DNA of 64,000 bases, taken from Pristiophorus japonicus (lineage: Eukaryota). The stretch spans positions 54,374,001-54,438,000 of the forward strand of contig NC_091987.1 in assembly GCF_044704955.1 (NCBI RefSeq), written 5' to 3'. The notes beneath the pieces are model-generated. The model worked only from the letters and a program-made list of their open reading frames with translations. It searched no databases and was not told where the DNA came from. The stretch's first letter is position 1, and every line of letters begins with the position of its first letter. This document shows positions 1-39,976 of this stretch, in pieces. The position numbers and the translations under genes were made by a program.

Positions 1-2176
1 CCCTCACTAAGGAACAGCAAGAGACCTTCCTGAGTTTGAAAAAGGCTTTGTGTTCGGCACCGGCTCTGGGAATCCCCGACAGTGGTAAGCCATTTACCCT
101 GTTTGTCCATGAGAAAGAAGGATATATGACAGCTATACTGACACAGGAACATGGGGATCGGCAAAGAACTATTGGCTATTATTCGGCAAATCTGGATGCG
201 ATAGCCCTCAGATGGGGAAGTTGCCTAAGGGCCATGGAAGCTACATGTCGAGCGGTAATGACCATTGCGGGTCTAGTCCTCGATCAAAAGCTGATTGTCA
301 AGTGTCCTCACACCGTACATGCTTTGCTGTCTATGAATAGAATGTCTCAGGTGACAGCAGCTAGATGGACCCGCTGGACTGCAGTTTTGGAAGCTCCTAA
401 TCTCCATATCGTCTGGGCCAGCCCGGTTAATCTTGCAACTATGCTCCCGATGTCAGAATCGAGGGAGCAAGAGGGGGGAGAATGTGAAGAGCATGACTGC
501 ATGGAGATTTTAAAAGAAACAGAAGAAGCAGCCTTAGCAGCAGAGGAGCTTCTGCACAACCCAGACCTCATCCTGTTTACAGATGGTTCCTCCTTTGTTG
601 ACAATGGTACCAGAAAAGCAGGATGGGCAGTTATAACCTTATATGAGGTAGTGGCAAAAGGATGTTTACCCTCAGGAACATCAGCACAACAGGCCAAATT
701 ACGGGCCCTGTCAGAAGCATGTTGAATAGCAGAAGGACAGACAGCTAATGTCTACACAGATTCGCGTTATGCTTTTGGAGTCGCTCACGACTTTGGTCTG
801 TTATGGCGGAAAAGAGGATTCCTCACTGCTGCTGGTACACCTATCCGAAATGGAAAAGAAGTCCGAGACTTACTGGAGGCCATACAATTACCTCAGGAAG
901 TGTCCATCCTGAAGTGTAAGGCCCATACCAAGGAAAATACCACAGAAGCTCAGGGAAATGCCCTAGCCGACCAGGCAGCTAAAGATACCGCCTCACAGGG
1001 CGTTCCTCCAGAAGAACCAACAGAGATGTGCAGATTGAAAGCACTCAGGACTCTGACACGAGACCTTCAAACAATGCAAGGTGAGTGCTCCCGAGAGGAA
1101 AAACGGACATGGATTGAGGCAGGAATTAAGCTATGCGAAGATGGTGTCTGGAGACAAAGAGTTACTGACAAACCAGTCGTGCCACAAGCGCTTATGCCTT
1201 TTTTAGCCCAACAGTTCCACTCGTGGACACTTGGCCTCACAACAGATGACGGCACGGTTCCAGAAAAGCTGGTAGGGTCGGGGATTTAAAAAACATGCCC
1301 AGCTGGTAGCAGACCGCTGTGTGGTCTGTCAGAAAAATAATTCTGGACCCATCACAGTAATGCCCCAACTGAGGCCTCCTGCCCCTGTCGGACCATTCCA
1401 GCATCTGCAGGTTGATTATATATCTCTTCCTTCATGCCAAGGATACACTAACATTCTTGTCATGGTCGACAGATTCTCTAGATGGGTAGAAGCTGTCCCA
1501 ACTAAAAGAGCCACAGCCAATCACACTGCAAAGGTCATGTGTAAGGATTACATTCCCCGATGGGGAATCCCAAATAGCATTGACTCAGATCAGGGAACAC
1601 ACTTCACAGGTGCTGTCTGCCAAGAATTCTGTAGGTTACTGAACATTACATGGGATTTACACTGTCCTTATCATCCACAATCATCAGGACAAGTAGAGCG
1701 AATGAATCGAACTCTGAAACAACTATCACCAAGAAAGAACACCATGGCCCCAGGCACTACCAATACTGCTATGTAGCATTAGGGCAACCCCAAACAGAAC
1801 TACAGGTCTAAGCCCATTTGAAATTATAACAGGAAGACCCATGTCGCTGCTAGGAACTATTGATTTACGGAAAGCTGATGTTCACTTAATGAGTGACACT
1901 TTGTTATCATACTGCCAGAACCTAACCAATACTATTAGTTCTGTTTCCCGACAGGTATCGGCAGCTTGGGGTAATCCACCCAAAGGAGGACACGACATAA
2001 TTCCTGGAGTCTGGGTCTATGTGAAAAAGTTACATAAAGAACCTTTGGGTGCCAAGTGGGAGAGACCTTATCAAGTGTTATTGACCACCCAAGCAGCTGT
2101 TAAAGTCCAAGGAAAGAAAGCCTGGATCCACGCCTCACACGTTAAACGAGCACCCGTAACTGAAGCTGAAATCTGA
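1..2176 (+). pseudogene. pol: Retroviral pol (connection domain, RNase H, integrase), broken by stops and frameshifts
   Basis: ORFs 36-725 (PALGIPD..PFTLFV; FTDGSS; SAQQAKL), VYTDSRYAFG just after the stop, 900-1289 (KCKAH..GNALAD), 1321-1776 (QVDYI, DRFSRW, SDQGTHF, PYHPQSSGQVER), 1841-2176 (KWERPYQVLLTT..WIHASHVK). Confidence 0.95.
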
Positions 2177-2200
2177 TAAGGACAATTACATTTTGCCAAA

Positions 2201-3551
2201 ATGTATAAATTTACTGTATTACTGACTATAGGTATTCTAGGCATATGCCTACTTCTTACTAGCCGACCCGCTGCACCAAAGGGAAATAGTAGAGTACAAG
2301 GGAATTACATGTAAATATCTTTTTATATATGTCATACATGTATGCCAAACAAGGTAACATTTCCAGTTGTTGGGTATGTGCGCATATTCCTCTTCACTCA
2401 AAGGGAGGGAGTCCCTTGAGCCCAGTTCCCTTCACTATCTCGGAAATGGCTGAGTGGATAATTAATCAAAACAAAACAGGCAATGCGTTTCAGGATACGG
2501 AAAACTGGGCACATAAATGGAAATCAGCAGGTTACAATCTGACTACCTTTGAAGTGGGATACCAACCATGCTACAATAATTCCAAAAGGCCCCCATTTTT
2601 TGTTATCACTAATACAACGGGAATAGGAAGACCGGGGGAATCAGTCTGTCTGATTAGAAACATCAAATGAGGCCAAAATATGGGGTATAGTAACTGCTCC
2701 CAGAATTATAATGTAATCAAGCCACTGAACCGTCCAAACTGGGCTGATATGGGAATTCTTAACGTAACGGGGATTCTGAATATAACAGATGGAAAAGCCT
2801 GGACAGGCCCCGGAGTGTTGCTGACAAAGAAACAGCTAACATTCATTGCCTATAATGGCACCTATTGGGTGTGTGGCCACAAGGCCTACCCTTGGCTGCC
2901 ACAGAATTGGACGGGATCCTGCTATTTAGCCTATATTGTGCCATATATGTATCATATAAAGTCACTGTCAGAACATTTACACCATCCTAAGAGAGCTATC
3001 ACAGAAACAGAGAGGTTCTTTGCCATTCTGATCCCCAGGTATGGGATCGCCAGACTGGCAAGGGAATCCATTAACATGGCATCTGTTGTGGAACGGTAGC
3101 TAATAATACTTCAGAGGCGCTAGTTAAAATCAATGCAGAAATGGTAGCAATCCGCACAGTAGTCCTACAGAATAGACTGGCCCTTGACTACATCCTGGCT
3201 GAAAAGGGAGGTACTTGCGCTCTACTCGGAACTGAGTGTTGCACGTATATCCCAGATAGCTCTGAAGAAATTATCCACTGAGCGGAGCATATCCAAAAGG
3301 AGGTAGAAAAACTTAAGCAACCCCCATCATTCACTTTGTGGAGCGGAGCCACTGAATGGCTAGGTTCAATAGGAACTTCATTGGTGGAAAGTTTAATTCT
3401 ATTCGTTGTAATTATTTTACTTTTATATTGTTTGTTTATGTTGATTAAATGTTGTTGCGACCAAACAGCTGTAGCTGCTGTCCCGCAGGTGAGACACCTT
3501 GCAGGTCCCAGCAGACCATCTGTATGTGGCACAGGGGTATGTTATGCTTAA
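2201..3551 (+). pseudogene. env: Retroviral env (gamma-type SU/TM), disrupted
   Basis: Signal peptide MYKFTVLLTIGILGICLLL from ATG 2201; CWVC motif; many N-X-S/T sites; cleavage site HPKR/AI; immunosuppressive domain [16 protein letters not shown]; CX6CC (CALLGTECC); membrane anchor LILFVVIILLLYCLFMLI. Stops near 2670, 3099 and 3280. Confidence 0.93.
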
Positions 3552-5969: not shown

Positions 5970-8333
5970 CATAGAAACATAGAAAATAGGTGCAGGAGCA
6001 GGCCATTCAGCCCTTCTAGCCTGCACCGCCATTCAATGAGTTCATGGCTGAACATGAAACTTCAGTACCCCCTTCCTGCTTTCTCGCCATAACCCTTGAT
6101 CCCCCGAGTAGTAAGAACTTCATCTAACTCCCTTTTGAATATATTTAGTGAATTGGCCTCAACTACTTTCTGTGGTAGAGAATTCCACAGGTTCACCACT
6201 CTCTGGGTGAAGAAGTTTCTCCTCATCTCGGTCCTAAATGGCTTACCCCTTATCCTCAGACTGTGACCCCTGGTTCTGGACTTCCCCAACATTGGGAACA
6301 TTCTTTCTGCATCTAACCTGTCTAAACCCATCAGAATTTTAAACGTTTCTATGAGGTCCCCTCTCATTCTTCTGAACTCCAGTGAATACAAGCCCAGTTG
6401 ATCCAATCTTTCTTGATAGGTCAGTCCCGCCATCCCGGGAATCAGTCTGGTGAACCTTCGCTGCACTCCCTCAATAGCAAGAATGTCCTTCCTCAAGTTA
6501 GGAGACCAAAACTGTACACAATACTCCAGGTGTGGCCTCACCAAGGCCCTGTACAACTGTAGCAACACCTCCCTGCCCCTGTATTCAAATCCCCTCGCTA
6601 TGAAGGCCAACATGCCATTTGCTTTCTTAACCGCCTGCTGTACCTGCATGCTAACCTTCAATGACTGATGTACCATGACACCCAGGTCTCGTTGCACCTT
6701 CCCTTTTCCTAATCTGTCACCATTCAGATAATAGTCTGTCTCTCTGTTTTTACCACCAAAGTGGATAACCTCACATTTATCCACATTATACTTCATCTGC
6801 CATGTATTTGCCCACTCACCTAACCTATCCAAGTCACTCTGCAGCCTAATAGCATCCTCCTCGCAGCTCACACTGCCACCCAACTTAGTATCATCCGCAA
6901 ATTTGGAGATACTGCATTTAATCCCCTCGTCTAAATCATTAATGTACAATGTAAACAGCTGGGGCCCCAGCACAGAACCTTGCGGCACTCCACTAGTCAC
7001 TGCCTGCCATTCTGAAAAGTACCCGTTTACTCCTACTCTTTGCTTCCTGTCTGACAACCAGTTCTCAATCCACGTCAGCACACTACCCCCAATCCCATGT
7101 GCTTTAACTTTGCACATTAATCTCTTGTGTGGGACCTTGTCGAAAGCCTTCTGAAAGTCCAAATATACCACATCAACTGGTTCTCCTTTGTCCACTTTAC
7201 TGGAAACATCCTCAAAAAATTCCAGAAGATTTGTCAAGCATGATTTCCCTTTCACAAATCCATGCTGACTTGGACCTATCATGTCACCATTTTCCAGATG
7301 CACTGCTATGACATCCTTAATAATTGATTCCATCATTTTACCCACGACTGAGGTCAGGCTGACCGGTCTATAATTCCCTGTTTTCTCTCTCCCTCCTTTT
7401 TTAAAAAGTGGGGTTACATTGGCTACCCTCCACTCCATAGGAACTGATCCAGAGTCAATGGAATGTTGAAAAATGACTGTCAATGCATCCGCTATTTCCA
7501 AGGCCACCTCCTTAAGTACTCTAGGATGCAGTCCATCAGGCCCTGGGGATTTATCGGCCTTCAATCCCATCAATTTCCCCAACACAATTTCCCGACTAAT
7601 AAAGATTTCCCTCAGTTCCCCCTCCTTACTAGACCCTCTGACCCCTTTTATATCCGGAAGGTTGTTTGTATCCTCCTTAGTGAATACCGAACCAAAGTAC
7701 TTGTTCAATTGGTCTGCCATTTCTTTGTTCCCCGTTATGACTTCCCCTGATTCTGACTGCAGGGGACCTACGTTTGTCTTCACCAACCTTTTTCTCTTTA
7801 CATACCTATAGAAACTTTTGCAATCCGCCTTAATGTTCCCTGCAAGCTTCTTCTCGTACTCCATTTTCCCTGCCCTAATCAAACCCTTTGTCCTCCTCTG
7901 CTGAGTTCTAAATTTCTCCCAGTCCCCAGGTTCGCTGCTATTTCTGGCCAATTTGTATGCCACTTCCTTGGCTTTAATACTATCCCTGATTTCCCTAGAT
8001 AGCCACGGTTGAGCCACCTTCCCTTTTTTATTTTTACGCCAGACAGGAATGTACAATTGTTGTAATTCATCCATGCGGTCTCTAAATGTCTGCCATTGCC
8101 CATCCACAGTCAACCCCCTAAGTATCATTCGCCAATCTATCCTAGCCAATTCACACCTCATACCTTCAAAGTTACCCTTCTTTAAGTTCTGGACCATGGT
8201 CTCTGAAATTACTGTTTCATTCTCCATCCTAATGCAGAATTCCACCATATTATGGTCACTCTTCCCCAAGGGGCCTCGCACAATGAGATTGCTAATTAAT
8301 CCTCTCTCATTACACAACACCCAGTCTAAGATG
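5970..8333 (-). mobile_element. Young 5'-truncated CR1 LINE (subfamily C)
   Basis: Tail (CATAGAAA)n at ~5970-5985; contains the 752-aa ORF below. Confidence 0.95.
6062..8320 (-). CDS. CR1 ORF2 segment: end of APE endonuclease (SDH) plus complete reverse transcriptase; uninterrupted but 5'-truncated
   Basis: PLGKSDH, KSPGPDG, NYRPVSLTS, QHGF, LDFQKAFDKV, GVPQGSVLGP, FADDTK, RTRGH motifs; no stop over 752 codons. Confidence 0.93.
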   Translation of the reverse strand: MLCNERGLISNLIVRGPLGKSDHNMVEFCIRMENETVISETMVQNLKKGNFEGMRCELARIDWRMILRGLTVDGQWQTFRDRMDELQQLYIPVWRKNKKGKVAQPWLSREIRDSIKAKEVAYKLARNSSEPGDWEKFRTQQRRTKGLIRAGKMEYEKKLAGNIKADCKSFYRYVKRKRLVKTNVGPLQSESGEVITGNKEMADQLNKYFGSVFTKEDTNNLPDIKGVRGSSKEGELREIFISREIVLGKLMGLKADKSPGPDGLHPRVLKEVALEIADALTVIFQHSIDSGSVPMEWRVANVTPLFKKGGREKTGNYRPVSLTSVVGKMMESIIKDVIAVHLENGDMIGPSQHGFVKGKSCLTNLLEFFEDVSSKVDKGEPVDVVYLDFQKAFDKVPHKRLMCKVKAHGIGGSVLTWIENWLSDRKQRVGVNGYFSEWQAVTSGVPQGSVLGPQLFTLYINDLDEGIKCSISKFADDTKLGGSVSCEEDAIRLQSDLDRLGEWANTWQMKYNVDKCEVIHFGGKNRETDYYLNGDRLGKGKVQRDLGVMVHQSLKVSMQVQQAVKKANGMLAFIARGFEYRGREVLLQLYRALVRPHLEYCVQFWSPNLRKDILAIEGVQRRFTRLIPGMAGLTYQERLDQLGLYSLEFRRMRGDLIETFKILMGLDRLDAERMFPMLGKSRTRGHSLRIRGKPFRTEMRRNFFTQRVVNLWNSLPQKVVEANSLNIFKRELDEVLTTRGIKGYGEKAGRGY

Positions 8334-9289
8334 GCCCCCCCCCGAAATCATCAGTATTTCTGTACAAACCAACCCTTCCGCCCGCCCCGCCCCACCCCCC
8401 CGCTTCTCCTCCCCACCTCTACCCCTTCCCCTCCTGACTCCAAGCCATCTGGCCAAGGAGCTCCTCAGGTGATGCTTCATTGGTGGGGGGGAAGGGTGAC
8501 AGCTGAAATGCTGCTTAGACGGATATGGGAGAGGACGGTCCCGAGGTGGGAACATGCCCCGAGCCGGAAGCTAGATTTTGCTGCTGGCTCTCATGTGTGG
8601 TTGGCAATGGGGGTGCGGCACCTTGGGGGGGTGCATGCCGCGCTCCGGGACCACGGGGAGCCCTCTGCCACCAGTGTTCCTGGCTACCAGTTCCAGGGCC
8701 TCCTCCATCCCTTCCATGTTATATCTTATTCGTTGGACAAAAGCTCAGTGCTAACTATGTTCTTGATGCTTAGTAGGCTTTTTGCTACTGGTGAATCTCC
8801 CTTGTGCCTCCCACAACAGCCAGACAAGCATACACCACAGCCACTCAAGCTTTCAGTGCCTCTATCTCCTCTTCTACACATGTCATGATGACCCTTGACC
8901 TCCTGAATCGCGGGAATCGATCGTTGCCATGCCATTGCTAAGGACGGTGACACTTTATGGCACAAGGTCAAAAACATTTCACACTACCTCCCATTTCATT
9001 TTGCTCGTGGTAACACTCATTTTCGAATGGGTGACAAGCCAGCGATCTGAAAACCCTTTTTTACTGTCCACGCCGGAAAAATCGCCCAAACACAAAAGTG
9101 GAGGTTCTAGCTCACAGTATTTTATCGCTGTAATGGATATGTTCCATAACCTCCTGCTGTTGAAAGAAAGCATGGCAGAGAGATCAGCAGGCTCCTAAAA
9201 TATACTGACTACACTTGCTGTTGAATCACCAACCATTTTGGCTTTGGCATACCTAACTATCAATGACTAGGTTCTGGGTCAACAGGGAG

Positions 9290-12721: not shown

Positions 12722-15663
12722 GTGCTAGAACCTCCACTTTTGTGCTTATCGCCTCAAAATGGGCGTTATTTCTGGCGTGGGCATTAGAAAAGGGTTTTCT
12801 GATGGCCTGCTTCTCGCCCATTCTCAAAACACCTAGTTTCCATTTTTGAAAATGCACGAGCGATATCAAATGGGCGGTAGCGTTAAATTTATTTGACCTT
12901 CTGCCGTAAAGTATCGCCATCCTTAGCAACGGCATGGCAATGCTTGATTCCCGTGATTGAGGAGGTCAAGGGCCATCATAACATGCACAGAAGAGGAGAC
13001 AGAGAGAGAGGGAGCTGAGAGGGACTGAAGGCGTGTGTGGCTGTGGTGTATGCTTGTCTGGCTGTTGTGGGAGGCACGAGGGAGATTCACCAGTAGCAAA
13101 AAGCCTACTAAGCACCAAGAATATAGTTGGCACCGAGTTTCTGTCCAACAAATAAGATATAACATGGAAGGGATGGAGGAGGCTCTGAAGCTGTGAGCCA
13201 GGAACACTGGTGGCAGAGGGCTCCCCGTGGTCCCGGAGTGTGGCACTGCTCCCCAAGGTGCCGCACCACCATTGCTAACCTCACATGAGAGCCAGCAGCA
13301 ACATCTTGCTTCTGGCTCGGAGCACGTTCCCATCTCGGGACCGTCCTCTCCCGTATCCGTCCAAGCAGCGCTTCGGCCATCACCACCGCCCCTCCCCCCC
13401 CCAATGAAGCATCGCCTGAGGACCTCCTCGGCCAGGTGGCTTGGAGTCAGGAGGGGAAGGAGTAGAGGTGGGGAGAAGAAGCGGCCGGCCGGGGCGGGGG
13501 GGCGGGGCGGGCGGAAGGGTTGGTTTGTACAGAAATACTAATGATTTCAGACTAATATTCAGTTTAAATGTTTTTTATTTAACAAAATCTTGTAGCACAT
13601 TGGCTCAGAAAGCTGCACCGTTACACGCTAGTGATTTCTTAACATCAAAAGGTATAATTACACTTAACTTCAATCAACTTAAACTTTAACTGTCACCAAG
13701 GTGATGCCCACCATTGATGTATGACCTACACACCCAGCAGTGTGTCAGCCTTGTAAATAACACCAACGTTCTTTCAGGCAAAGCGATCATTGATGAGCTC
13801 CTGACGTAAGGCTCTTGCAGCTATTATGTCACCATGAGCCCTTTCATGCGGTCTGCAGGTGGGTATGGGCATGGCTTCAGCATCAGCCTGATTGTCTTTG
13901 CTGATGTCAGTGTCCACCTCCTCATCCTCCTCTTCCTCTGTCTGGTGAGGTGGACTGACAGACTCATCAGGCAATTCTTGTCCCCTCCTGATAGCCAAGT
14001 TGCGCAACATGGAGAACACTGCCGCGAATTGAGCTACCTACTCAGGGTGGTATTGGAGCTCACCTCCTGAGTGGTCCAGGCTTCAAAGCGTTGCTTCAGC
14101 ACTCCAATGGTTTTCTCCACGATATTGCGAGTTGCTCTGTGGCTCTCATTGTATCGCCTCGCGGCCTCAGTGTGGATGTCACGCAGGGGAGTCATCAGCC
14201 AAGTGGCGAGGCCATATCCTTTGTCACCAAGCATCCAGCATTGACCTTGTGGCTCATTGTTAAACAAATCAGATACAGTGCTCTCACGCAGGATGTGAGT
14301 ATCATGGATGCTGCCCGGAAATTGAGCATTCACTGCCAGTATAATTTTCTGGTGGTTGACAACCAGTTGGACATTCAGGGAATGGAATCCCTTGTGGTTC
14401 CTGAAAACATCAGCATCCTGAAAAGGTTCCCACATCGCGATGTGCGTACAGTCTATTGCTCCCTGCACCTTGGGAAAGTTTGCAATTCTGGAGAATCCTG
14501 GCACCCTCTCACTCTGTGCCTCCCTGGTCATAGGGAAGCTGATCAAGTCCCTCCTGCATATGTACATGGCTTCTGTGACCTGTCTAAAGCAGCAATCTGT
14601 AGCATGCTGAGAAAATCCGCTAATGTCTCCAGGTGTGGCCTGAAAAGAACCCGAAGCATAGCACGACAGTGCTGCGGTGACTTTGACCTTGACGCACAGT
14701 GCAGTACTGATGGTGCTGGCAGGCTGTAGATCTGCCCTTATCAGCTGGCATACGTCAGTGATAACCTCTTTGTGGAAGCGCAGTCTCCAAAGGCAGGTGG
14801 TGTCGGGCAAGTCGAGGTATGAATGCTTCTCCTTGTACCGCGGTGACTTACAGTGTAACGTCTGGTCCTCCTCATCTATCTGTCACTTCTTACATTGGGT
14901 ACATAATGCAGTGGAGCATTCCTTTGGTGATGTCGAGGCTGCTGCAAGTATTTGGTCACCCAGAGAGGGTGAGAAAGTACAGGCCCCATTGCAGTAGCTC
15001 TCGGTTTTCCACCGATTGCTCACAAACAAGGAATATTCCGATGAAGACACCTCTTCAATTCCAATCGGTCACAGTATGGTCAAGATGTTTGTAGAGATGT
15101 TCACATCAACTCAATGACCTGCAGAGTACATCCGAACTCCACCGAGGTTGAAGCACAGCAGCCTTTTAAAGGACGTGACATGTGATCTCGAACATTGCGT
15201 CCATAACGCTGTGATTCGTTCCGGTTAGTTCCACTTTTTGTGGCCGTTTTTTTGGGCAAGCGATATTGTGGGTGATATGTGTGCCAGGTGGTGAAATTGA
15301 TGATGGCCGATCTCCATGGCCGCTAGTTTGGGTAAATATGCTCTTTATGGCAAAAAACACTGGCCGGGCGTTAATATTGAATCTCAGCGTTAAATCCATT
15401 TGGAAAGTAACGCTGGGCGATATTAAGGTCATTGAATTCGTCCATTCTGCTGATTCTGTCAAAAAAAGTGGGCGGGTGGTAATATTTTTTCTCGCTGTTA
15501 AGCACATGGGGAAAGTAACGCTCGCTGATAAGTTTCTGAAAAATGGCCGCCAGTTTCCATTTTGTGCCAAAATGGGTGATATATGGGCGTTATACGCCAT
15601 TTCAGTGGTAAAATGGGCGTTAAGTGGACGTTAAGCATGCAAAAAAAGTGGAGGTTCTATCCC
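12722..15663 (-). mobile_element. PIF/Harbinger transposon, both ends present, transposase-only (no recognisable Myb/SANT exon)
   Basis: TIRs GTGCTAGAACCTCCACTTTT / AAAAGTGGAGGTTCTATCCC; AAA on both flanks (3-bp TSD). Confidence 0.92.
13774..14989 (-). pseudogene. Harbinger (HARBI1-like) DDE transposase, frameshifted
   Basis: [48 protein letters not shown]; C-terminus LRNLAIRRG...INDRFA in another frame. Confidence 0.93.
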
Positions 15664-18345
15664 AAAGAGATTGCAAGATTTAGTTCATTTGGAGCTGCCA
15701 TAATAACTAAGATGAGAATTGCTTTGAGGGTTCCAATGATGCTCCTAAATTTGTAAGAGTAGATGTTGAGCAGATAAGAAAGGCAGATGTAATGGTACAT
15801 CAGGCTCTATATCGCAACACATCCTTACTCCAAGGCCCTCATTGAAAGCTTCACTTCACAAAATGTAATAACAATACTTGTTAAATGTATTGTTATTACA
15901 TTTGATTATAACTGTTATATTGTTATAACTGTTTGATCTGTCATTTTTTTCAACAAATTAATCTGGCTAAATCTTATTCCACTGAATTTAGCAAATTCCA
16001 AGTTCAATACTTTTAACTTTAACCCCTCTTTTTCATTACCTATTAAAATTTGAATCGAATTAGGTGGTAGTTATTATTCCTCGTTCTGAAGAAGGGCCCT
16101 GTCTGAAATTCTGACCTTTCTTTTCTATTCACAGATGCTGACTGACTTGCCATGTGTTCAAGCATTTTATATTGTCAAGTGGCACATTCTTTTTAAAGCA
16201 ATCAGATGGATGGTTCATGAAACAATTCAACATTTATTTATCCGAAGAGGTTGTTTCTTGTGTATAATATGCAAATAACATGGAGAACTGGCACCACATC
16301 ACATTACACTGTGAAGTACTTCCATAATTTATATGCAGATTTCTGATGCTATTCAGGAATGGAAAACGGTTTGATAATCTATTTTGAATAAAAATAGATT
16401 TTTAAAACATTTATAACATAATACTTGGAGTACTATTTGTTTTGCAATTTCAACACCGTTTTCACCTGAGTGCAATGAGGCAAATATTGGTGCCAATACA
16501 AAAATGTTTTTGCTTTGGTGATAAAGCACTTGAAAAATGTAATCTATCTCAAGCTAAGATTATATTTCCCCCTCCCCACCATTGGCAACACTAAGCAGAG
16601 TTAGCACATGTGCTCCACAAAGTGATGGTGTTGCAGTCCGGTTGGGAGATGGATATTTTTGTCACCTTGTCCAGAGCTTCTTGACTTGCTTCTAATGCAA
16701 TGGTGGAAGGATCTGGTTTCTTTGATTAGATAAGAGTAAAATAGGATGCAGTAAAGGTGCCAGTTTCATGTTGTTGTGTTGCACTTTCAGCTGTGCATTC
16801 ATTTACAAGTGGCAGTGTAACTCTGGAGTCAGGTCCTTATCTAACTCCAGAGCACATTGAAACCAAGCGACGTGAAACCTTAATACCCTAACCATTTGTC
16901 CATTCTTCATATACGAGCCTAGACAAGGAGTGCCAGTAGCAATTGGACCTAAGGTTAACTAACCTATTCTCACCAAACATTCCCACACATGCCCTTTCCA
17001 CTAACTAGTGATTGGAACTAGGAAGACTCTCTAATTTTGCCCTTACTTAATATTGACTTCAATTATAGTGATAGCATTGTTGCCATACTAAGATTAAGGG
17101 GGATATTTTGCGGGAGGGCTGCGGGCGCGATTGATGGCGGGTCAGGTGGGAAATTTTTTTTTTGATAGTGGGTCGGAGAAGGTGTAATGTATGTAGCACT
17201 CAAATCACTGACTCCACACAGTCTGGTTTTGTAGTAACTGCTGTGACTTTAGTCCTTTATTGTGCAACTCCAGAGTGCCTCTCAGGTGTGGTGGGCAGCC
17301 TTTTATACTCTGTCTTGCAGGTACTTTCAGGTCTCCCACCACAGCGCCCTCTGTGGCGCACCATTGTACTTATACATTTAATGTACCTGGACAATACATA
17401 ACATCTCACTCCCCCCCCAGTTCCAAAAGCCATTGCCGGTAACCTCGGCCTTGTTCGTCCTGGTTGGTTTGTGAGTGTGAGTCCATGACCATCCACTTCC
17501 CTCTTCCCCCCCCCCACCCCCATGTAGAAATTATGCTTGCGATCCGGTGCAAACATGTGGTATTTGCAGTCCTTACATGGGTGATGAAGTACACGAGTAT
17601 AACCTCCAACAGAAAGCAAGTATACATAGTACAATTCTATGGTACGTATGATGTATGGTACAGATGTTATGTCAAAAAGTTGCAGGTGCACTGAACAGTT
17701 ATTTAATCCCAGCTCCACTGGGTGAGGTACGGTGGCAGTATACTGCCCCTTTTTGCCCATGGTAATGGGCTGCGCTGAGACAGGGTATCGCAACTAGTGC
17801 ATTGCCTCTGTTCTCAGTAGTCGCTTTAGCGGCTCATCTGCAGCCACTGAACCATTGCATAATCACGTAAATTCGGAAATCGCCTTGGCCCCTTAGGCAT
17901 GTTAGTCACGGACCCATTAACCCTTTTACTTGTACCTCATAGTATTAACTCTTCATAAATCATTCCTATCCATCATTTTAAACACAGTAACCATTCAGCA
18001 TCAAAATATCAACTCTTATCCTACATCATACAAATCACATTACACATTTAGACTCGCTCTTGCCTTACAAAAGTCTTTTTTGTGGGGACCGCCAACAGTG
18101 TAAGGCCCTTTTAAGGCTCCCAGGTGCATTTCCCTTTTAAGACGCCATCTTGTGGTTCTCACGAGGCTTCCCTTGGGTGCCGCCATTTTAGTTTTTTTTG
18201 TACTGCTTGCTTTTGTTCTTTGCAGCCACGAGGCTCGTCACCATCTTGAGCTCGCTGGCCTGACGTTTTGCTGCAGTTAAGAAGGGATAGGAGGATAAAG
18301 AAGAAAGAAAAATAAAAAAAAAACGGCCAAGAATGAGTCGCGGAC

Positions 18346-18580
18346 CTGACTAATGCTGCAGTCACCAGAACGGCTCCTCCTGCCGCCGCCGCTCAAACCA
18401 AGGCTTCCAGCAAGAAGAGGAATGTGATGAATGGCTCCCTGAAGCAGATCAAGGGCACGGGCGCCTCGGACTCCTTCAAAATCGCTACAATGGATCCCCA
18501 GGGGAAAGAAGGTGAAGAAGCCAGCAGCCAAGAAAGCAGCAGCCAAGAAATCACCAGCAACGAAAGCAGCAGCCAAGAAC
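18346..18580 (+). pseudogene. Captured histone H1 fragment, internally deleted, antisense to the retroelement
   Basis: From CTG 18346: TNAAVTRTAPPAAAAQTKASSKKR|NVMNGSLKQIKGTGASDSFKI (H1 signature KGTGASGSFK); after a frameshift, KVKKPAAKKAAAKKSPATKAAAK. Confidence 0.88.
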
Positions 18581-18587
18581 GATTCGA

Positions 18588-18917
18588 TCAGTCATAGTCC
18601 CTGTGACCTCCGTAACTGCCGTAACTGCTGCTGCATCCCCCACTCTGGCTCTTATGCCCACCCGAGTAGCTGTCGCGTTCTCCCGAGTTATGCCGGCCGC
18701 CTCTATAGCCTTCTCTGCCGCCGTGGCCTCCTCTGCCGCCGTGGCCTCCTCTGCCGCCGTGGCCTCCTCTGCCGCCGTGGCCTCCTCTGCCGCTGTGGTC
18801 CCAGTAGCTGCTGCCTCTCCTGCGGCCGCCGTAGCCGCCACCACCGCCACCCGACTTTTTCTCCGCACGGCCCCTCCCGATTTGTCGGCTGTCGATGGGT
18901 TTGTCATTCAATGCCTG
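18588..18917 (-). pseudogene. Captured CIRBP/RBM3-like fragment (end of RRM plus RGG tail, to a stop codon)
   Basis: ALNDKPIDSRQIGRGRAEKKSGGGGGGYGG resembles CIRBP [20 protein letters not shown]; followed by RGG repeats and KSQSGG...RDYD* (CIRBP has RSQSGG...RDSYD). Confidence 0.7.
18713..18798. repeat. 18-bp tandem repeat (CTCTGCCGCCGTGGCCTC) x4 plus a partial copy; encodes GGRGGH on the minus strand
   Basis: Four identical units read directly from the sequence. Confidence 0.95.
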
Positions 18918-18999
18918 CTCTTCCAGGGTCTGCTCGTCTGTGTGTGGCTTCTTTCTCCTCCAGCTCGGTTGGCGCTGCTCTTTGGGAACCCAGGGGACA

Positions 19000-20224
19000 G
19001 CGGTCTGTGGAGGAATGAAGTCTTCCCAGCTCCCATGGACCTTCCCCATCCATCTCCTGCCTAGTAGCGTCAACCCATCGCCTGCAATGACCCACAAAGA
19101 TAAACCGTGCGTCTCGCCCCCGTGAGATACCTACACATCCGCTCTGCCAAGAAAAGGTATCAGTTCCTTGGTGTAGGTACGCAGCTTTGCCATGACCGGG
19201 ACCAATTTGGGTCATGCAGCTGGGTTGACCCACAGTTTTTCAAAAGTTCTCTGACTCATCAACGATGGACCCGATCCAGTGTCCACTTCCATACTCACTG
19301 GGACTCCGTTAATCTTGACCTCCATAATCACTAGGGCCGAATCGTCGGTACACATGTATAATCCAAACACCTCATCTTCTTCTGCCTGCTCCTCGCTGGA
19401 TAGTAGACCATCTACCATCGCCTCAGCCACACGGTGAGTCAGGTTTCTTTTGCACATACGCTGAAGGTAGCCTTTCGTGTGGCAGGTATTGCACGTGTAC
19501 TCCACAAACCTGCACTGGTGAGCCCCATGGCTTCCTCTGCAGCGCCAGCATGGTGCTGCTCGATTAGCCCCCCTCGGCGGACTCTGAGTTCCAGGACCCC
19601 AAGGTCTGTGCTCTCTGCCCTGGGCAGAGCCACATTCTGCAGTTTTGTCCGTGGTGGGCGCTATCCTGTGGACAGTGCCTGCCGGGTTCGAGACAGTGTG
19701 GATCATCTGCTTGGTGCTGCAAGTCGAGGTCATGAATGCCCTGCTGATGGTGATGGCTTGCTTCAGGGTGACTGTAGGCTCAGTGGATAGCAGCTTGTGA
19801 AGGAGACCTTCATGGCCAATCCCCATAACAAAAACGTCCTGCAATGCCTCGTCAAGGTGTGTGCCAAAATCACAAGGTGCCACGAGTCTCCTGAGGTCCG
19901 CAGCATATTTGGTGACATCCTGGCCCTCGGGTCTGCAGTGATGGTAGAATTTGTGCCGGGCCGTGAGGATGCTCTCCTTCCATTTCAGTTGGTCATGAAT
20001 GAGTGCGATCAGCTCCTCATATGACTTGTCCCTGGCACTCTCGGGTGCCAGCAAATCCCTGATGAGACAGTAAACCTCATCACCACAACTGGCAAGCAAT
20101 ATCGCCTTACGCTTCTCTCACAGTGCTTCAGGTCGTTTGTTGTGAAGTAGTACTCAAGCCTTTCCATGAAGGCCTCCCAATCCTTGCCCACCGTAAAATC
20201 CTTTAACGAGCCCAGAGTAGCCAT
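19000..20224 (-). pseudogene. gag: Gypsy gag plus aspartic protease
   Basis: MATLGSL..DWEAFMERLEYYF; QDVFVMGI; two zinc knuckles (CWRCRGSHGAHQC, CNTCHTKGYLQRMC); protease MEVDTGS...LLGR. One frameshift near 20110 and two in-frame stops. Confidence 0.92.
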
Positions 20225-22605
20225 GGTTGCGTGAAGTTCGTTCGTGTCCTTGTTGCCAATGTAATGCATGTAGCACTCAAATCACTGACTCCACACGGTC
20301 TCGTGTTGTAGTAACTGCTGTGATCTTAGTCCTTTATTGTGCAACTCCAGAGTGCCTCTCAGGTGTGGTGGGCAGCCTTTTATACTCTGTCTTGCAGGTA
20401 CTTTCAGGTCTCCCACCACAGCGCTCTCTGTGGTGCACCATTGTACTTATATATTTAATATACCTGGACAATACATTACAGAAGGTAAAAGTGCAGGTTA
20501 GCAATAGGGGTAATGATAATGAGAGTGTGACAGGAAGGAACAGAGCGTATACATTTAAGACAAATTTAAAAGCTCCTAAAACTGAATGCATGCAACATTT
20601 GTAACGAGATAGATGAGTTGACGGCACAAGTAGAAATAAATGGGTATGATCTGATTGCCATTACAGAAACGTGGTTGCAAGGTGACCAAGGATGGGAACT
20701 GAATATTCAGGGATGTGTGCCATTTCGTAAGGTTAGGCAGAAAGGAAAAGGAGGTGGGGTAGTTCTGTTAATAAGGGATGAGATCAGTGCAGTAGTGAGA
20801 AATGATATTGGCTCAGAAGATCAAGATATAGAATCAGTTTGGGTGGAGATAAAAAATAATGATAGGAAGTCACTGGTGGGAGTGATTTTCAGGCCCCCAA
20901 ACAGTAGCCACACTGTAGGACAGAGTATAAATCATGAAATAATAGAGACTTGTAAGAAAGTTATGATGATAATCATGGGCCATTTTAATCTTCATATTGA
21001 TTGGACAAATCAAATTGGCAAAGATAGCCTGGAGGAAAAGCTCATAGAGTGAATGCAGGATGGTTTCTTGCCATACCTTGTGGAACCAACCAGGGAGCAG
21101 ACTATTCTAGATCTGGTAATGTGTAACAAGTCTGAATTAATTCATGATCTCGTAGTGAAGGATCCTCTTGGGAGGAGTGATCACAGCATGGTAGAATTTC
21201 AAATTCATTTTGAGGGTGAGAAAACTAGTTCTTAATCTAGTGTCCTGAACTTAAATAAAGGTAATTACAAAGGTATGAAGGCAGTGCTGGTTAAAGTGGA
21301 CTGGGGAAATATATTAAAGGGTAAGACTAGAAAAGCAGTGGCAAACATTTAAAGAGATATTTCATAACTCTTAGCAAAGATATACTCCAGTGAGAAGAAA
21401 AACTGTAAGAGAAGTATGAATCTTCCAGGGCTAACTAAGGACATAAAGGATGGTATCAAATTGAAAACAATGGCATACAATGTTGCGAAGAACAGTGGAA
21501 GGCCAGGGGATTGGGAAATTTGTAGAAACCAGCAAAGGACAACTGAAAAAATGATAACGAGAGATAAGATAGCTTATGAGAGTACTTACTAGCAAGAAAT
21601 AAAAAAACAGAAAGTCAGAGCATCTACAGGTATATAAAAAGGAAGAGAGTAGCTAAAGTAAATGTTGGTCCCTTAGCGGGTGAGATTGGGGTATTAATAA
21701 TGGGAAACAGGGAAATGGCGGAGACTTTGAACAAATATTATGTATCGGTCTTCACGGTAGAGTGCACAAAAAGCATCCCAATAATTGATAATCAAGGGGC
21801 TATTGGGAGGGGGGGGGATCTTAAAACAATCACTATCACTAGAGAAAAAATACTAGGCAAACTAATGGGACTAAAGGTGGACTAGTCCCCTGAACCTGAT
21901 GGCCGCCATCTTAGTGACTTAAAAGAGGTGGCTGCAGTGATAGTGGATGCATTGGTTGTAATCTACCAAAATTTCCTTGATTCTGGAGAGGTCCCAGCGG
22001 ACTGGAAAACTGCAAATGTAACACCCTTATTTAAGAAAGGAGGGAGATAGAAAGCAGGAAACTATAGAACAGTTAGCCTAACGTCTGTCATTGGGAAAAT
22101 GCTGGAGTCCATCATTAAGGAAATAGTAGCAGGCCATTTAGAAAATCATAACACAGTCAAGCAGAAACAGCACAGTTTTTTGAAACATAAATCATGTTTG
22201 ACAAATTTGCTGGAGTTCTTTGAGGATGTAATGAGCAGGGTGGATGAAGGGGAACCAGAAGATGTTGTGTATTTGGATTTACAGAAAGCATTCGATAAGG
22301 TACCACATAAAAGGTTACTGCACAAGATAAGAGCTCACGGGGTTGAGGGTAATATATTAGCGTGGATAGAGGATTGGCTAACTTACAGAAAGCAGAGAGT
22401 CGGGATAAATGGGTCATTTTCAGTTTGGCAAACTGTAACTAGTGGGGTGCCACAGGGATCAATGCTGGGGCCTCAACTATTTACAATTTATATTCATGAC
22501 TTGGATAAAGGGACCGAGTGTAATGTAGCCAAATTTGCTGATGATACAAAGATAGATAGGAAAGCAAGTTGTGAGGAAGATGCAAAGAATCTACAAAGGG
22601 ATATA

Positions 22606-24195: not shown

Positions 24196-27100
24196 TGTTG
24201 TGTATCTGTAAAGCATGCACTCCCATGTTCCGCCATCAGGGAGCACATCCCCTGAAGTCCCAAGGGATCCCAGCATCCCTTGGGAGCACTGTGTATAAGC
24301 CAGCCCCTAAGGCCTGTTCCTCACTCTGGAGTGTCTTAACAAAGACTGAGGTCACTGTAACTTTAATCTCCCTCTGTGCAGTCTCATCTGTTTTAGGAAC
24401 ACAATAACTGCCGACGAGTATACGAATCCAACGCAAAGATGCAGCAAAATGAGGGTATCCTGGAGAAGTTCTCGGAAGGTGAGGACAGGGAAGCCTATGT
24501 CGAATGGTTAGACCAGTACTTTGCAGCCAACGAGCTGGACAGAGTAAGAAGTGCTGCAAAAAGGAGAGCGGTCCTCCTCACGGTCTGCGGGGCACCAACC
24601 TACAGCCTCATGAAGAATCTTCTGGCTCTGGTGAAACCCACGGATAAGTCGTATGAGGAGCTGTGTACACTGGTTCGGGAGCATCTTAACCTGAGGGAGA
24701 GCGTGCTGATGGCGAGGTATAGGTTCTACACGTGCCAGCGACCTGAAGATCAGGAAGTGGCAAGCTACGTCGCTGAGTTAAGGCGACTTACATGACAATG
24801 TGAGTTTGATGGCTACCTGGAGCAGATGCTCAGAGACTTTTTTGTATTGGGCATTGGCCACGAGACCATCCTACGAAAACTTTGACTGTAGAGACACCGA
24901 CCCTCAGTAAGGCCATTGCGATAGCACAGGCGTTTATGTCCACCACTGATAACACCAAACAAATCTCTCAGCATACAAGTGCTAGCAATGTTCATAAATT
25001 AACTAGAACTGTGTTTGCAAGCAGAAATGTACAGGGCAGAAAACACGAGTCTGCAACTTCCAGCAGGCCTCAGGTGACCCAGATGACTCAGAGTCCGCAT
25101 CAAAGGATGAATGCAAGGCAATTCACACCTTGTTAGCATTGTGGAGGCTTCCATTCAGCCTATTCATGCCACTTCAAAGGTTATGTTTGCAAGAGCTGTG
25201 GAACAATGGGGCACCTCCAACGAGCTTGCAGACAAGCTGCAAGCTCTGCCAAACCTGTTAACCACCACGTGGCAGATGAAGATTGGTCCATGGTGGATCA
25301 AAGCAATTTCAAGCCTCAGAGAGAGGAGACAGATGCTGAAGTACAAGGGGTGCACACATTTTTGACAAAATGTCCACCTATAATGCTCAATATAAAATTG
25401 AATGGCTTACACGTAGCCATGGAACTGGACACTGGCACTAGCTAATCCATCATGAGTAAAAAGATGTTTGAGAGACTGTGGTGCAATAAGGCACTCAGAC
25501 CAGCCCTGAGCCCCATCCACATGAAACTGAGAACGTACACCAAAGAACTCATCACTGTCCTGGGCAGTGCCATGGCCAAGGTCACCTACGAGGGCACGGT
25601 ACATGTACTGCCACTTTGGATTGTCCCGGGTGATGGCCCCACACTGCTTGGAAGGAGCTGGCTGGGCAAAATCCGCTGGAACTAGGATGACATCCGAGCG
25701 AGGTCGATGAGGCCTCATGTGCCCAGGTTCTTAACAAATTTCCTTCTCTTTTTGAGCCAGGCATTGGAAACTTTTCCGGGGCGAAGGTGCGGATCCACTT
25801 GGTCCCAGAGGCACGACCCATTCACCACAAGGCACGAGTGGTACCTCACATGATGAGGGAGAGAGTGGAAATCGAGCTGGACAACGTGCAATGCGAGGGC
25901 ATCATCTTCCCAGTGGAATTCAGCGAGTGGACCAGCCTAATTGTTCCAGTACTCAAAAGTGATGGCACGGTCAGGATTTGCGGCGAATATAAAGTAACTA
26001 TTAATCGTTTCTTGCCACATGACCAATACCCACTACCTAAGGCAGAGGATCTATTTGCAACGCTGGCAGGAGGCAAGACGTTCACCAAGCTCGACCTGAC
26101 TTCGGCCAACATGATGCAGGAGCTGGAGGGGTCTTCGAAGGGCCTCACCTGCATCAACACGCACAAGGGACTGTTCATCTACAACAGATGCCCGTTTGGA
26201 ATTCGGTCGGCTGCAGTGATCTTCCAGAGAAACATGGAGAGCCTACTCAAGTCGGTACCACACACAGTGGTTTTTCAGGACGATATATTGGTCACGGGTC
26301 GGGACACTGTCGAGCACCTACAAAACCTGGAGGAGGTCCTCCAGCGACTGGATCGCGTAGGGCTGCGGCTGAAGAGGTCAAAATGCATCTTCATGGCAAC
26401 AGAAGTGGAGTTTTTGGGGAGAAAGAGCGCAGCGGATGGCATTCGGCCCACAGATGCCAAGACAGAGGCTATCAGGAACGCGCCCAGGCCACAGAATGTC
26501 ACGGAGCTGTGGTCGTTCCTGGGACTCCTCAACTATTTTGGTAACTTCTTACTGGGGTTAAGCACTCTCTTACAGCCCCTACATGTGCTATTTTGTAAAG
26601 GTGAGAACTGGGTATGGGGAAAAAAACCAAGTGATTGCTTTTGAGAAAGCCAGAAACATTTTATGCTCCAACAAGCTGCTTTTATTGTATAACCCATGTA
26701 AAAGAGTTGTGCTGGCATGTGATGTGTCGTTGTACGGAGTCGGCTGTGTATTACAACAAGCTAATGTTGCGGAGAAGTTGCAACCTGTCACCTATGCTTA
26801 CAGGAGCTTGTCTCAGGCCGAGAGGGCCTACAGCATGATTGAGAAAGAGGCATTAGCATGTGTGTTCGGGGTAAAGAAAATGCATCAGTACCTGTTTGGC
26901 CTCAAATTTGAGCTGAAAACCGATCACAAGCCCCTCAAACAAGGGGATAAATACTAAGGTGGGCACTCGCGCTATCAGCATATAACTCTACCATCCGCCA
27001 CAGGCCAGGCACCGAGAACTGTACGGATGCTCTCAGTCGGCTACCATTGCCCACCACAGGGGTGGAAATGGCACAGCCTGCAAACTTGTTGGTGGTGGCG

Positions 27101-28761
27101 CAGCCCGCAGATTTGTTGATGGTCATGGAAGCGTTTGAAAATGATAAATCACCTGTCACGGCCCGCCAGATTAGGACTTGGACCAGCCAAGATCCTCTGC
27201 TGTCCATAGTAAAAAACTGTGTACTGCATGGGAGCTGGGCCAGCATCCCCGTTGAAATGCAAGAACTAATCAAGCCATTCCAGCGGCAAAAGGACGAGCT
27301 ATCCATTCAGACAGACTGCCTGTTGTGGGGTAACCGCGTAGTGCTACCAAAAAAGGACAGGGAGATGTTCATCTCGGATCTCCACAGCACACACCCGGGT
27401 ATAGTAATGATGAAACCGATAGCCAGATCCCATGCTTGGTGGCCCTGTATCGACTCTGACTTAGAGTCCTATGTACGGCAATGCAGCGTGTGTGCTCAGT
27501 TGAGCAACGCGCCCAGAGAGGCACCACTAAGTTTGTGGTCCTGTCCCTCCAGACCATGATCGAGGATCCATGTCGACTATGCGTGCCCGTTTCTCGTTAG
27601 AATGTTCCTGGTGTTGTTGGATGCTTTTTCAAAATGGATTGAACGTGAAATAATGTCAGGAAGCACCGCCACTGCAACCACTGAAAGCCTGAGGGCCATG
27701 TTTGCCACCCACAGCCTGCCTGACATATTGGTCAGTGACAACGGGCCATGTTTCACCAGTGCCGAATTTAAAGAATTCATGTCGCGCAATGGGATCAAAC
27801 ATGTCACCTCGGCCCCGTTTAAACCAGCCTCCGATGGGCAGGCAGAGCGGGCAGTACAAACAATCAAACAAAGCCTTAAACGAGTCACAGAAGGCTCACT
27901 CCAAACCCGCCTGTCCCGAGTACTGCTCAGCTGCCGCAGAGACCGCACTCGCTCACAGGGGTGCCCCCGGCTGAGCTACTCATGAAAAGGACACTTAAAA
28001 CCAGGCTCTCGCTGGTTCACCCCAACCTGCATGATCAGGTTGAGAGCAGGCGGCAGCAAGAAAATGTAAACGATGGTCGCGCCACTGTGTCACGGGAAAT
28101 TGATCTGAATGATCCTGTGTATGTGCTAAACTATGGACATGGTCCCAAGTGAATCGCGGGCACAGTGATAGCTAAAGAAGGGAGTAGGGTGTTTGTAGTC
28201 AATCTCGACAATCGACAAATTTGCAGAAAGCACCTGGACCAAACGAGGTTGCGGTTCACAGACTGCCCTGAACAACCCACAGCAGACACCACCTTTTTCG
28301 AGCCACAACACACACCCAAAAGATCAATGACACCACACCGGACCAGGAAATCGAACCCATCACACCCAACAGCCCAGCAAGGCCAGGCTCACCCAGCAGC
28401 CCTGCAAGGCCAACAACACGCCAGCCCAGCGAGGGCACAGCCAACACACCAGAACAGATATTTATACCGAGGCGGTCCACCAGGGAAAGAAAGTCTCCCG
28501 ACCGTCTCACCTTGTAAATAGTTTTCACTTTGACTTTGCCGGGGGAGTGATGTTGTGTTTTTTTAAAGCATGCATTCCCATGTTCTGCCACCAGGGAGCG
28601 CATCCCCTGAAGTCCCAAGGGATCCTAACATCCCTTGGGAGTACTGTATCTAAGCCGGCCCCTAAGGCCTGTTCCTCACTCTGGAGTGTCTTAATAAAGA
28701 CTGAGGTCACTGTTACTTTAATCTCCCTGTGTGCAGTCTCATCTTTGTTCGGAACACAATA
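24196..28761 (+). mobile_element. Full-length but decayed Ty3/Gypsy LTR retrotransposon (Mag-like)
   Basis: 211-bp LTRs at 24196-24406 and 28551-28761 (~20 mismatches by eye); PBS-like ACTGCCGACGAG; PPT GGGGGAGTGA; imperfect TSD TTACT/TTATC. Confidence 0.95.
24439..28520 (+). pseudogene. Gypsy gag-pol (Gag, PR, RT, RNase H, IN), many stops and frameshifts
   Basis: ELDTG protease; RICGEYK, CPFGI, VFQDD (RT); ACDVS, YSMIEKEALA, TDHKPL (RNase H); HSTHPG, VSDNGPCF, GQAER (integrase); domain order PR-RT-RH-IN. Confidence 0.93.
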
Positions 28762-33840: not shown

Positions 33841-35075
33841 GGGGCTGAAATTGTCCCTGTCGATAAGGCCTCTGGCCACCTGAAAGTGACGACGATGGGT
33901 GGGGTGAATGGCCGCTGAGTCGCAGCAGACTGGCCAACGTTTGCGGAATTGCCCTCATGGGTTTTTGCTGTGGTATGGATATCCACCCCCCCCACCCCCC
34001 CACCTCCACCCCGCTCCTGCAGATAGAAACATAGAAACATAGAAAATAGGTGCAGGAGCAGGCCATTCAGCCCTTCTAGCCTGCACCGCCATTCAATGAG
34101 TTCATGGCTGAACATGAAACTTCAGTACCCCATTCCTGCTTTCTCACCATACCCCTTGACCCCCCGAGTAGTAAGGACTTCCTCTAACTCCCTTTTGAAT
34201 ATATTTAGTGAATTGGCCTCAACTACTTTCTGTGGTAGAGAATTCCACAGGTTCACCACTCTCTGGGTGAAGAAGTTTCTCCTCATCTCGGTCCTAAATG
34301 GCTTACCCCTTATCCTTAGACTGTGACCCCTGGTTCTGGACTTCCCCAACATTGGGAACATTCTTCCTGCATCTAACCTGTCTAAACCCGTCAGAATTTT
34401 AAACGTTTCTATGAGGTCCCCTCTCATTCTTCTGAACTCCAGTGAATACAAGCCCAGTTGATCCAGTCTTTCTTGATAGGTCAGTCCCACCATCCCGGGA
34501 ATCAGTCTGGTGAATCTTCGCTGCACTCCCTCAATAGCAAGAATGTCCTTCCTCAAGTTAGGAGACCAAAACTGTACACAATACTCCAAGTGTGGCCTCA
34601 CCAAGGCCCTGTACAACTGTAGCAACACCTCCCTGCCCCTGTACTCAAATCCCCTCGCTATGAAGGCCAACATGCCATTTGCTTTCTTAACCGCCTGCTG
34701 TACCTGCATGCCAACCTTCAATGACTGATGTACCATGACACCCAGGTCTCGTTGCACCTTCCCTTTTCCTAATCTGTCACCATTCAGATAATAGTCTGTC
34801 TCTCTGTTTTTACCACCAAAGTGGCTAACCTCACATTTATCCACATTATACTTCATTTGCCATTCATTTGCCGTTACCGAAGTCATCAGAGTGCACACTG
34901 TCAAGGACCCGCGCCGGAAGGTACATTCACCTCAAAAAGTCTTACGGCCACCTGTCGATGCAAAGGACAGCTTTTTGGGTCGGTACACAGTGCTAGTTCA
35001 AGACCGCCAGCGACCTTTAAAGGTGTGTTGCGTGTAGCAGCATTCTTGTGACCGAGACTTTTTCAGACTTTTCCA
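33841..35075. mobile_element. Harbinger-type MITE/terminal fragment interrupted by a CR1
   Basis: TAA followed by GGGGCTGAAATTG at 33841 (same TIR class as 63835); the GC-rich sequence after the CR1 is assigned to it tentatively; right end not found. Confidence 0.45.
34023..34866 (-). mobile_element. Young CR1-C, 5'-truncated
   Basis: Open ORF 34122-34904, nearly identical to 6062-6800; (CATAGAAA)n tail. Confidence 0.95.
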
Positions 35076-38497: not shown

Positions 38498-38640
38498 GGA
38501 TATAAAATGGGTCAGAGAGTCTAGTAAGAAGGAAGAACTGAGGGAAATCCTTATTAGTCGGGAAATTGTGTTGGGGAAATTGATGGGATTGAAGGCCGAT
38601 AAATCCCTAGGGCCTGATGATCTGCATCCCAGAGTATTAA
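38498..38640 (+). mobile_element. Short internal CR1-C ORF2 fragment, opposite orientation to the adjacent copy
   Basis: Encodes ELREILISREIVLGKLMGLKADKS..PDDLHPRVL; matches the reverse complement of ~7518-7655. Confidence 0.85.
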
Positions 38641-39870: not shown

Positions 39871-39976
39871 AGAGATAGGTTTTAAGGAGCGTCTAAAAGG
39901 AGGAAATAGAGGTAGAGAGGCAGAGAAATTTAGGCAGGGAGTCCCAGAGCTTAGGGCCTAGACAACAGATGGCACA
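39871..39976 (-). mobile_element. L2-type LINE 3' ORF2 fragment
   Basis: Minus strand reads GPKLWDSLPKFLCLSTSISSF.TLLKTYL, matching the L2 C-terminal P.LWNSLP...SFK..LKT.L motif. Confidence 0.65.

Follow-up and report, generated by a model that had tools for sequence, protein, structure and literature searches.

The analysed window, 64,000 nucleotides of contig NC_091987.1 of Pristiophorus japonicus, is rich in repeats and contains LINE fragments with reverse transcriptase, DDE transposases, Gypsy-type elements and an endogenous retrovirus remnant. The retrovirus remnant (1-3500, plus strand) is fragmented into pol pieces, an integrase core and an env-like TLV_coat match, and DDE_Tnp_4 (Harbinger-like) transposase remnants lie at 14037-14882 (minus strand), 54896-55855 (plus strand) and 46117-47210. 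A linker-histone gene fragment is located at 18334-18579, antisense to the Gypsy-type LTR copy around it. This antisense position inside an LTR element had been claimed in the first-pass annotation, and it is borne out by the location of both an LTR pair and a target-site duplication (TSD) of the element:

17178-17182, no strand: element TSD GAAGG, left copy, 5 nt
17183-17403, minus strand: 3' LTR, 221 nt, TG...CA ends, 95% identical to the 5' LTR
17404-17425, minus strand: polypurine tract, read from the sequence
17426-18325, minus strand: 3' internal region lacking an ORF, for the most part probably UTR-like sequence from the 3' side of the CIRBP locus
18326-18333, plus strand: left copy of GCCAAGAA, putative TSD of the H1 insert
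18334-18345, plus strand: presumed H1 5' UTR remnant, judged from its position, 12 nt ahead of the start position
18346-18417, plus strand: H1 N-terminal arm, codons 1-24, CTG replacing ATG, with 7 differences that alter amino acids among the first 8 codons
18418-18504, plus strand: last part of H1 helix 3 with wing and linker (residues 84-112), following directly on the 59-codon deletion
18506-18579, plus strand: start of the H1 C-terminal tail (residues ~115-139), out of frame past an 8-nt deletion, 3'-truncated
18572-18579, plus strand: right copy of GCCAAGAA, part of the H1 coding sequence (Ala-Lys-Lys) and putatively the microhomology used for priming
18588-18950, minus strand: apparently captured CIRBP/RBM3-like coding sequence, in frame with the protease, stop at 18590-18588 (P0031, E 4e-32)
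18708-18798, minus strand: 18-nt unit (GGHGGR), 5.1 copies, within the CIRBP tail
18951-20224, minus strand: gag and aspartyl protease, Gypsy-type, with a frameshift near 20120 and stops at 19214 and 19133
20241-20259, minus strand: primer-binding-site-like sequence adjoining the 5' LTR, read from the sequence
20260-20480, minus strand: 5' LTR, with TATAAAA at 20384 and AATAAA at 20338
20481-20485, no strand: element TSD GAAGG, right copy, 5 nt

The earlier identification of the fragment as histone H1 is upheld by Pfam, PDB, protein-match and tblastn evidence. Positions 51-74 of the 74 in the Pfam Linker_histone model were matched (E 1.6e-4; 22.3 bits against a cut-off of 22.4), and 16 of the 17 PDB matches at E<=1 were H1, H5 or H1x chains, the remaining one being HP1BP3. 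In the protein search 25 of 68 candidates passed E<=0.001, every one of them an H1-like protein of P. japonicus. The H1-like protein P0001 gave three collinear blocks in tblastn (residues 1-31, 80-117 and 115-139; E 6e-21), and homology of the piece to linker histones is thereby established. Compared with the P. japonicus H1-like proteins (UniRef UPI00398E5E6A and 24 others), the piece is 79% and 96% identical to P0001 over the wing and tail blocks, respectively, and its tail is of the type found in three of the 25. Unlike these proteins it has no ATG, helices 1-2 or stem-loop, it is frameshifted and its tail is cut.

In plus-strand translation, frame 1 from the CTG at 18346 reads LTNAAVTRTAPPAAAAQTKASSKK fused to RNVMNGSLKQIKGTGASDSFKIA; both the CTG at the start position and the joining of the N-terminal arm to the end of the globular domain in this frame had been read correctly at first pass. 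The large deletion removed 59 codons of the globular domain, residues 24-82 or 25-83 of P0001 depending on the placement of a KK overlap, and left AAGAAGAGG at the junction with AGC AAG AAG AGG AAT as the local codons. The microhomology earlier proposed for this deletion corresponds to an overlap of Lys codons, likely of about 4-8 nt as judged only from the donor proteins, which read SKKKK on the left side and IKK or IKR on the right. A second deletion, of 8 nt near 18505, shifts the tail into a different frame, and the tail ends at about residue 139 of 220, after about 25 tail codons, with no poly(A). Having CTG for a start codon, a frame broken near 18505 and an incomplete winged-helix globular domain, the piece cannot encode H1. 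No histone 3' stem-loop was matched by Rfam at the gathering score in the window, and two chance matches in the element at E<=10 are not histone stem-loops. Capture of DNA from a histone cluster was considered and rejected, as Rfam calls no stem-loop and the window contains neither H1 nor CIRBP sequence beyond the two pieces described here. A hairpin-like word resembling a histone stem-loop is seen at 18102-18121 (plus strand), 225 nt upstream of the H1 piece; Rfam makes no call there and the resemblance is probably due to chance.

The two LTRs of the host element differ by 11 mismatches in 221 nt. Neither Pfam nor comparison with the neighbouring Gypsy element revealed reverse transcriptase, RNaseH or integrase in the host element, and the likeness to this neighbour stops directly past the protease. 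The neighbour (24196-28761, plus strand) carries gag, protease, reverse transcriptase and integrase broken by stops, has LTRs that are 91% identical, and is of the same kind as a potential helper family.

Six matches were obtained with the ORF adjoining the H1 piece, all from P. japonicus. One is an intact CIRBP, and the other five (P0026-P0030) are chimeras of element and CIRBP with one common protease/CIRBP junction, all ending at the same residues. In the CIRBP part the RRM is gutted by in-frame deletions while the RGG-type tail is retained; one RRM deletion is common to four sister chimeras, and P0026 has the larger deletion seen in this copy. The host element is evidently a member of a multi-copy non-autonomous family in which reverse transcriptase, RNaseH and integrase have been replaced by a CIRBP/RBM3 mRNA; the junction is observed in the proteins, and capture of an RNA is what we infer from it. 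No intron-sized gap occurs within the CIRBP coding piece. The sister models carry the annotation 'RNA-binding protein 3-like' in four cases and are listed as uncharacterised in the fifth. Several 'RNA-binding protein 3-like' annotations in P. japonicus are thus retrotransposon chimeras and not genes.

The indels in the CIRBP part of this copy are several, all of them frame-keeping, and the part is open to its native stop. Four of the five sister models are likewise in frame to the native stop, and P0030 leaves and then regains the frame; annotation bias and triplet repeats could explain this retention of frame. The 18-nt tandem expansion in the tail is recent (97% match) and absent from the five sister models. 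The gutted CIRBP piece was not recognised in PDB or Pfam, and the sister P0027 was grouped with RBM3/CIRBP clusters in Atlas. Among the best 150 of 475 in the profile search, P0027 alone showed the complete chimera. In P0029 the first 11 Gag codons are joined to the segment ahead of CIRBP, and the minus strand has a phase-0 GT donor at 20191 and a pyrimidine-rich AG acceptor at 19005 matching this join, so that a spliced Gag-leader/CIRBP transcript is possible.

The CIRBP piece fits the LTR-mediated retrocopies of Tan et al. as characterised in the portion of that paper used here (PMC5131818), in that internal ORFs are replaced, the insert is in sense orientation and fused in frame, the same junction recurs in several copies and secondary spread has followed. 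HERV-K/FAM8A1 and maize Bs1 are LTR-mediated cases cited in the same source. The H1 piece also sits between two LTRs bounded by the element TSD, but it is antisense and appears to interrupt the element with a duplication. Element sequence was always replaced in the Drosophila captures treated in that portion, and a mosquito example there is without TSD; the H1 piece, provisionally, replaces nothing and has an 8-nt repeat of its own, both sides being apparently CIRBP-derived.

This exact direct repeat, GCCAAGAA, flanks the H1 piece at 18326-18333 and 18572-18579. The H1 similarity stops together with the right copy, 8 nt past the CIRBP stop (18590-18588) and on the opposite strand, and the flanking match runs on imperfectly over 13 of 17 nt, reaching an A-run. 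A shared word of at least 8 nt between the border zones was found in 132 of 20,000 random windows, 482 of 20,000 dinucleotide shuffles and 21 of 839 purine-rich windows. Support for the repeat as a TSD (p 0.007-0.025) is consequently moderate, not overwhelming, and 8 nt is short for a TSD.

Beyond the left copy of the repeat, the element strand enters a pyrimidine tract and then a segment resembling an exon of P0033, the match ending at 18209. At the protein level this match is the second-best peak in 128 kb and is not significant (61 of 1000 shuffles), while in a second, post hoc test at the nucleotide level it is the top peak in 128 kb (23.8 against 22.7 bits; 3 of 500 shuffles); the exon may belong to either of two joined genes. 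P0032 and P0033 are unnamed gene models that each join two CIRBP-type genes, suggesting that CIRBP/RBM3 genes are in tandem in the source genomes. The region 17426-18325 has no long homologue elsewhere within the window, and among the matches listed there is none between it and the P0032 linker. The stop of human CIRBP is placed at an alternatively spliced 3' junction in the part of the source drawn upon (10.1101/2023.01.18.524578), and UTR sequence would therefore be expected past the stop. The resemblance of the sequence past the insert to CIRBP-locus sequence suggests that H1 interrupts one continuous CIRBP-derived segment and duplicated 8 nt of it. Several words like AAGATGGCG or AAAATGGCG at 18140-18245 (minus strand), in the presumed CIRBP 3' region, are what we take to be candidate YY1-type motifs.

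The first-pass annotation had proposed that H1 was captured by template switching and had itself named a TSD belonging to the H1 piece as an observation that would speak against this. Such a repeat is found at both borders, with a chance of 0.7-2.5%, and since the piece appears to interrupt and not to replace, the claim is not favoured. The most plausible hypothesis, which we regard as somewhat probable, is that the H1 piece is a secondary, 3'-truncated retro-insertion nested in a CIRBP-capturing element. In a first event a Gypsy-type LTR retrotransposon would have taken up a CIRBP/RBM3 mRNA in sense orientation, in place of reverse transcriptase, RNaseH and integrase, and the CIRBP-bearing element would then have spread as a non-autonomous family. 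In a second event, affecting a single copy or sub-lineage, a DNA 3' end with terminal TTCTTGGC, 8 nt past the CIRBP stop, may have base-paired with GCCAAGAA in an H1 mRNA, within its repetitive tail, and a reverse transcriptase acting in trans, presumably of LINE type, would have copied this mRNA up to the 5' UTR. Repair would have duplicated the 8-mer and left an antisense, 3'-truncated H1 retro-insertion devoid of poly(A). Priming by a DNA 3' end inside H1 mRNA would account for the antisense orientation, for a 3' end that matches the target and for a 5' end lying 12 nt before the start codon. The two internal deletions may be due to slipping from one Lys-rich repeat to another, whether at the time of synthesis or afterwards, and are similar in style to those of the CIRBP part.

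Internal priming with target complementarity and a TSD is a described route to tailless retropseudogenes, 51 human histone cases being given in the portion of the source used (PMC5322556). The H1 piece resembles these, including histone-derived ones, in its 3' truncation, its direct repeat, its want of oligo(A) and a target able to pair with the RNA at its internal end point, the right repeat copy being H1 coding. The putative TSD, an exact 8-mer with nulls of 0.7-2.5%, may be set beside the flanking TSDs of 8-30 nt in that type. The piece differs from them in that it is found in a shark and not in a therian or anole, has two internal deletions and is nested in an LTR element. Neither is it at the L1 target TT/WAAAAWW, as the repeat starts GCCA past CG and an A-run lies 2 nt further upstream. 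In the sections of PMC5322556 relied on, tailless forms are reported from no vertebrates but therians and the anole, besides a few from maize, and are tied to L1. In sharks an obvious candidate for the source of reverse transcriptase would be the CR1 group of LINEs, which make up 22-34% of elasmobranch genomes according to the part consulted of PMC13343379. Young CR1-group copies are present in the window at 6065-8347 (minus strand), 34044-34872 and 38639-39892, up to 98% identical over 300 nt, and one CR1-group copy has a 761-codon open reverse transcriptase frame.

Template switching in the particle may be entertained as a tentative alternative, although we hold it to be doubtful. The reverse transcriptase of a helper would have jumped to H1 RNA at GCCAAGAA, followed it as far as the 5' UTR and then switched back, either in plus-strand synthesis or on antisense H1 RNA, and the chimera would then have integrated and perhaps been amplified as a subfamily. 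The microhomology at the H1 3' junction is in keeping with such a jump, as is the fact that the family already captured one mRNA, and multi-gene LTR captures are known (PMC5131818, in the portion used). The orientation of H1, however, is opposite to that of CIRBP, and duplication rather than replacement is seen at the site.

Divergence of the H1 piece bears on the same question. The piece differs from any sampled H1 by a minimum of 12 amino-acid-changing differences in 174 sites, which exceeds the per-lineage rate of the LTRs of 11 in 442 lineage-sites (p 0.016), in a comparison where the true H1 donor may lie outside the sample and LTR conversion could bias dating. This excess suggests passage through reverse transcription cycles, as would the two slippage-type deletions like those of the CIRBP part, and together excess and deletions give hints that the H1 piece is older than the last transposition of this copy. 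The excess nevertheless stems from 7 of the 12 differences, mostly transitions, which fall within the first 8 H1 codons (18346-18369; clustering p 1e-5), while the remainder, 5 changes in 157 non-synonymous sites, is similar to the LTR rate (p 0.58) and runs of 12-18 codons have no amino-acid change. A different donor, junction errors or editing are possible causes of the cluster, and H1 may have arrived before or after insertion of this element copy. CpG depletion does not separate the parts (observed/expected 0.58 in the H1 piece versus 0.52 in gag-pro). The single element-strand frame that runs across the junction of CIRBP stop and H1 gave 13 candidates, none at E<=1, and the deleted-H1 chimera is not seen among the 25 protein matches; protein sets rarely hold such pseudogenes, and the missing H1-bearing proteins are weak evidence either way on sister copies, and weak evidence against template switching.

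H1 genes are intronless, and RNA and DNA templates are for this reason indistinguishable. One may ask whether a break in the element was filled by copying an H1 gene or pseudogene, itself without introns, from a microhomology primer, in repair of the SDSA or polymerase-theta type, with slips during this synthesis producing the deletions. We consider such a repair unlikely. Consistent with it, three junctions within 246 nt fall at short repeats, neither poly(A) nor introns mark an RNA origin, templates abound in the many H1-like loci of P. japonicus (25 clusters), and a degenerate paralogue could supply the diverged first 8 codons, as illustrated by the H1-like protein P0021 with its 7 private changes. 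The start codon nonetheless lies just 12 nt inside the insert, as it would in a copy reaching the mRNA 5' end, and a clean flanking duplication, being more typical of staggered endonuclease nicks, fits these better than repair.

Whichever way H1 arrived, the earlier claim that element-sense RNA would carry antisense H1 is right by orientation, with about 246 nt in any such transcript. From this one may speculate that the antisense piece was retained as an anti-silencing module, from which piRNA or endo-siRNA would lower linker-histone mRNA and relieve transposon repression, a role that we find highly improbable. The orientation is suitable, the unchanged runs of 12-18 codons could yield matches of 26-30 nt, and the 5' LTR retains TATA-like and poly(A) words. 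There are precedents: parent mRNAs are controlled by piRNAs from antisense pseudogenes and, in Drosophila, H1 is recruited by Piwi (PMC7792047), while in maize siRNA cross-talk arises from captured fragments (10.1101/777037), each as set out in the portion of the source used. With the pseudogene sources of antisense piRNA (Stambp-ps1) and the maize captures the locus shares a host-gene fragment antisense to a potential transcript; it differs from them in being known from sequence alone and in that its target would be a large multigene family. Against such a role, a single known copy would face 25 or more H1-like genes, the window offers no further H1 copy, inverted or otherwise, with which a hairpin could form, and the piece is decaying. 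In maize, moreover, what the element gained was 'less obvious' and expression of important donors was maintained, according to the part of 10.1101/777037 relied on. Small RNAs against H1 from this element are accordingly possible in principle but unsupported. Were they to be made by an amplified subfamily, this would be one of the rare instances among animals in which an element has armed itself against a chromatin repressor.

It may further be imagined that a Gag-protease-CIRBP(RGG) fusion is kept in frame by selection, its RNA-binding tail of host origin serving in competition for packaging or in stress-linked expression, and that an antisense H1 cassette, acquired and amplified by a subfamily, gives piRNAs lowering H1 mRNA in the germ line. 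We regard this combination as very far from probable; if true, a host silencing pathway would have been turned on a transposon repressor. Most likely the H1 piece is a neutral passenger, and as such it matters little, being a nested pseudogene fragment from known kinds of process. The in-frame Gag-protease-CIRBP family is a better lead than the H1 piece. Literature searches, made chiefly among openly available papers, listed no report of this family, of an H1 capture in a shark or of an LTR-mediated retrocopy in chondrichthyans, and the part consulted of bioRxiv 2025.02.02.635956 has no bearing on the locus. The CIRBP chimeras would modestly extend LTR-mediated retroposition with secondary spread to the cartilaginous fishes, and the H1 piece would do the same for the TSD-flanked tailless histone insertion, a form hitherto tied to L1.
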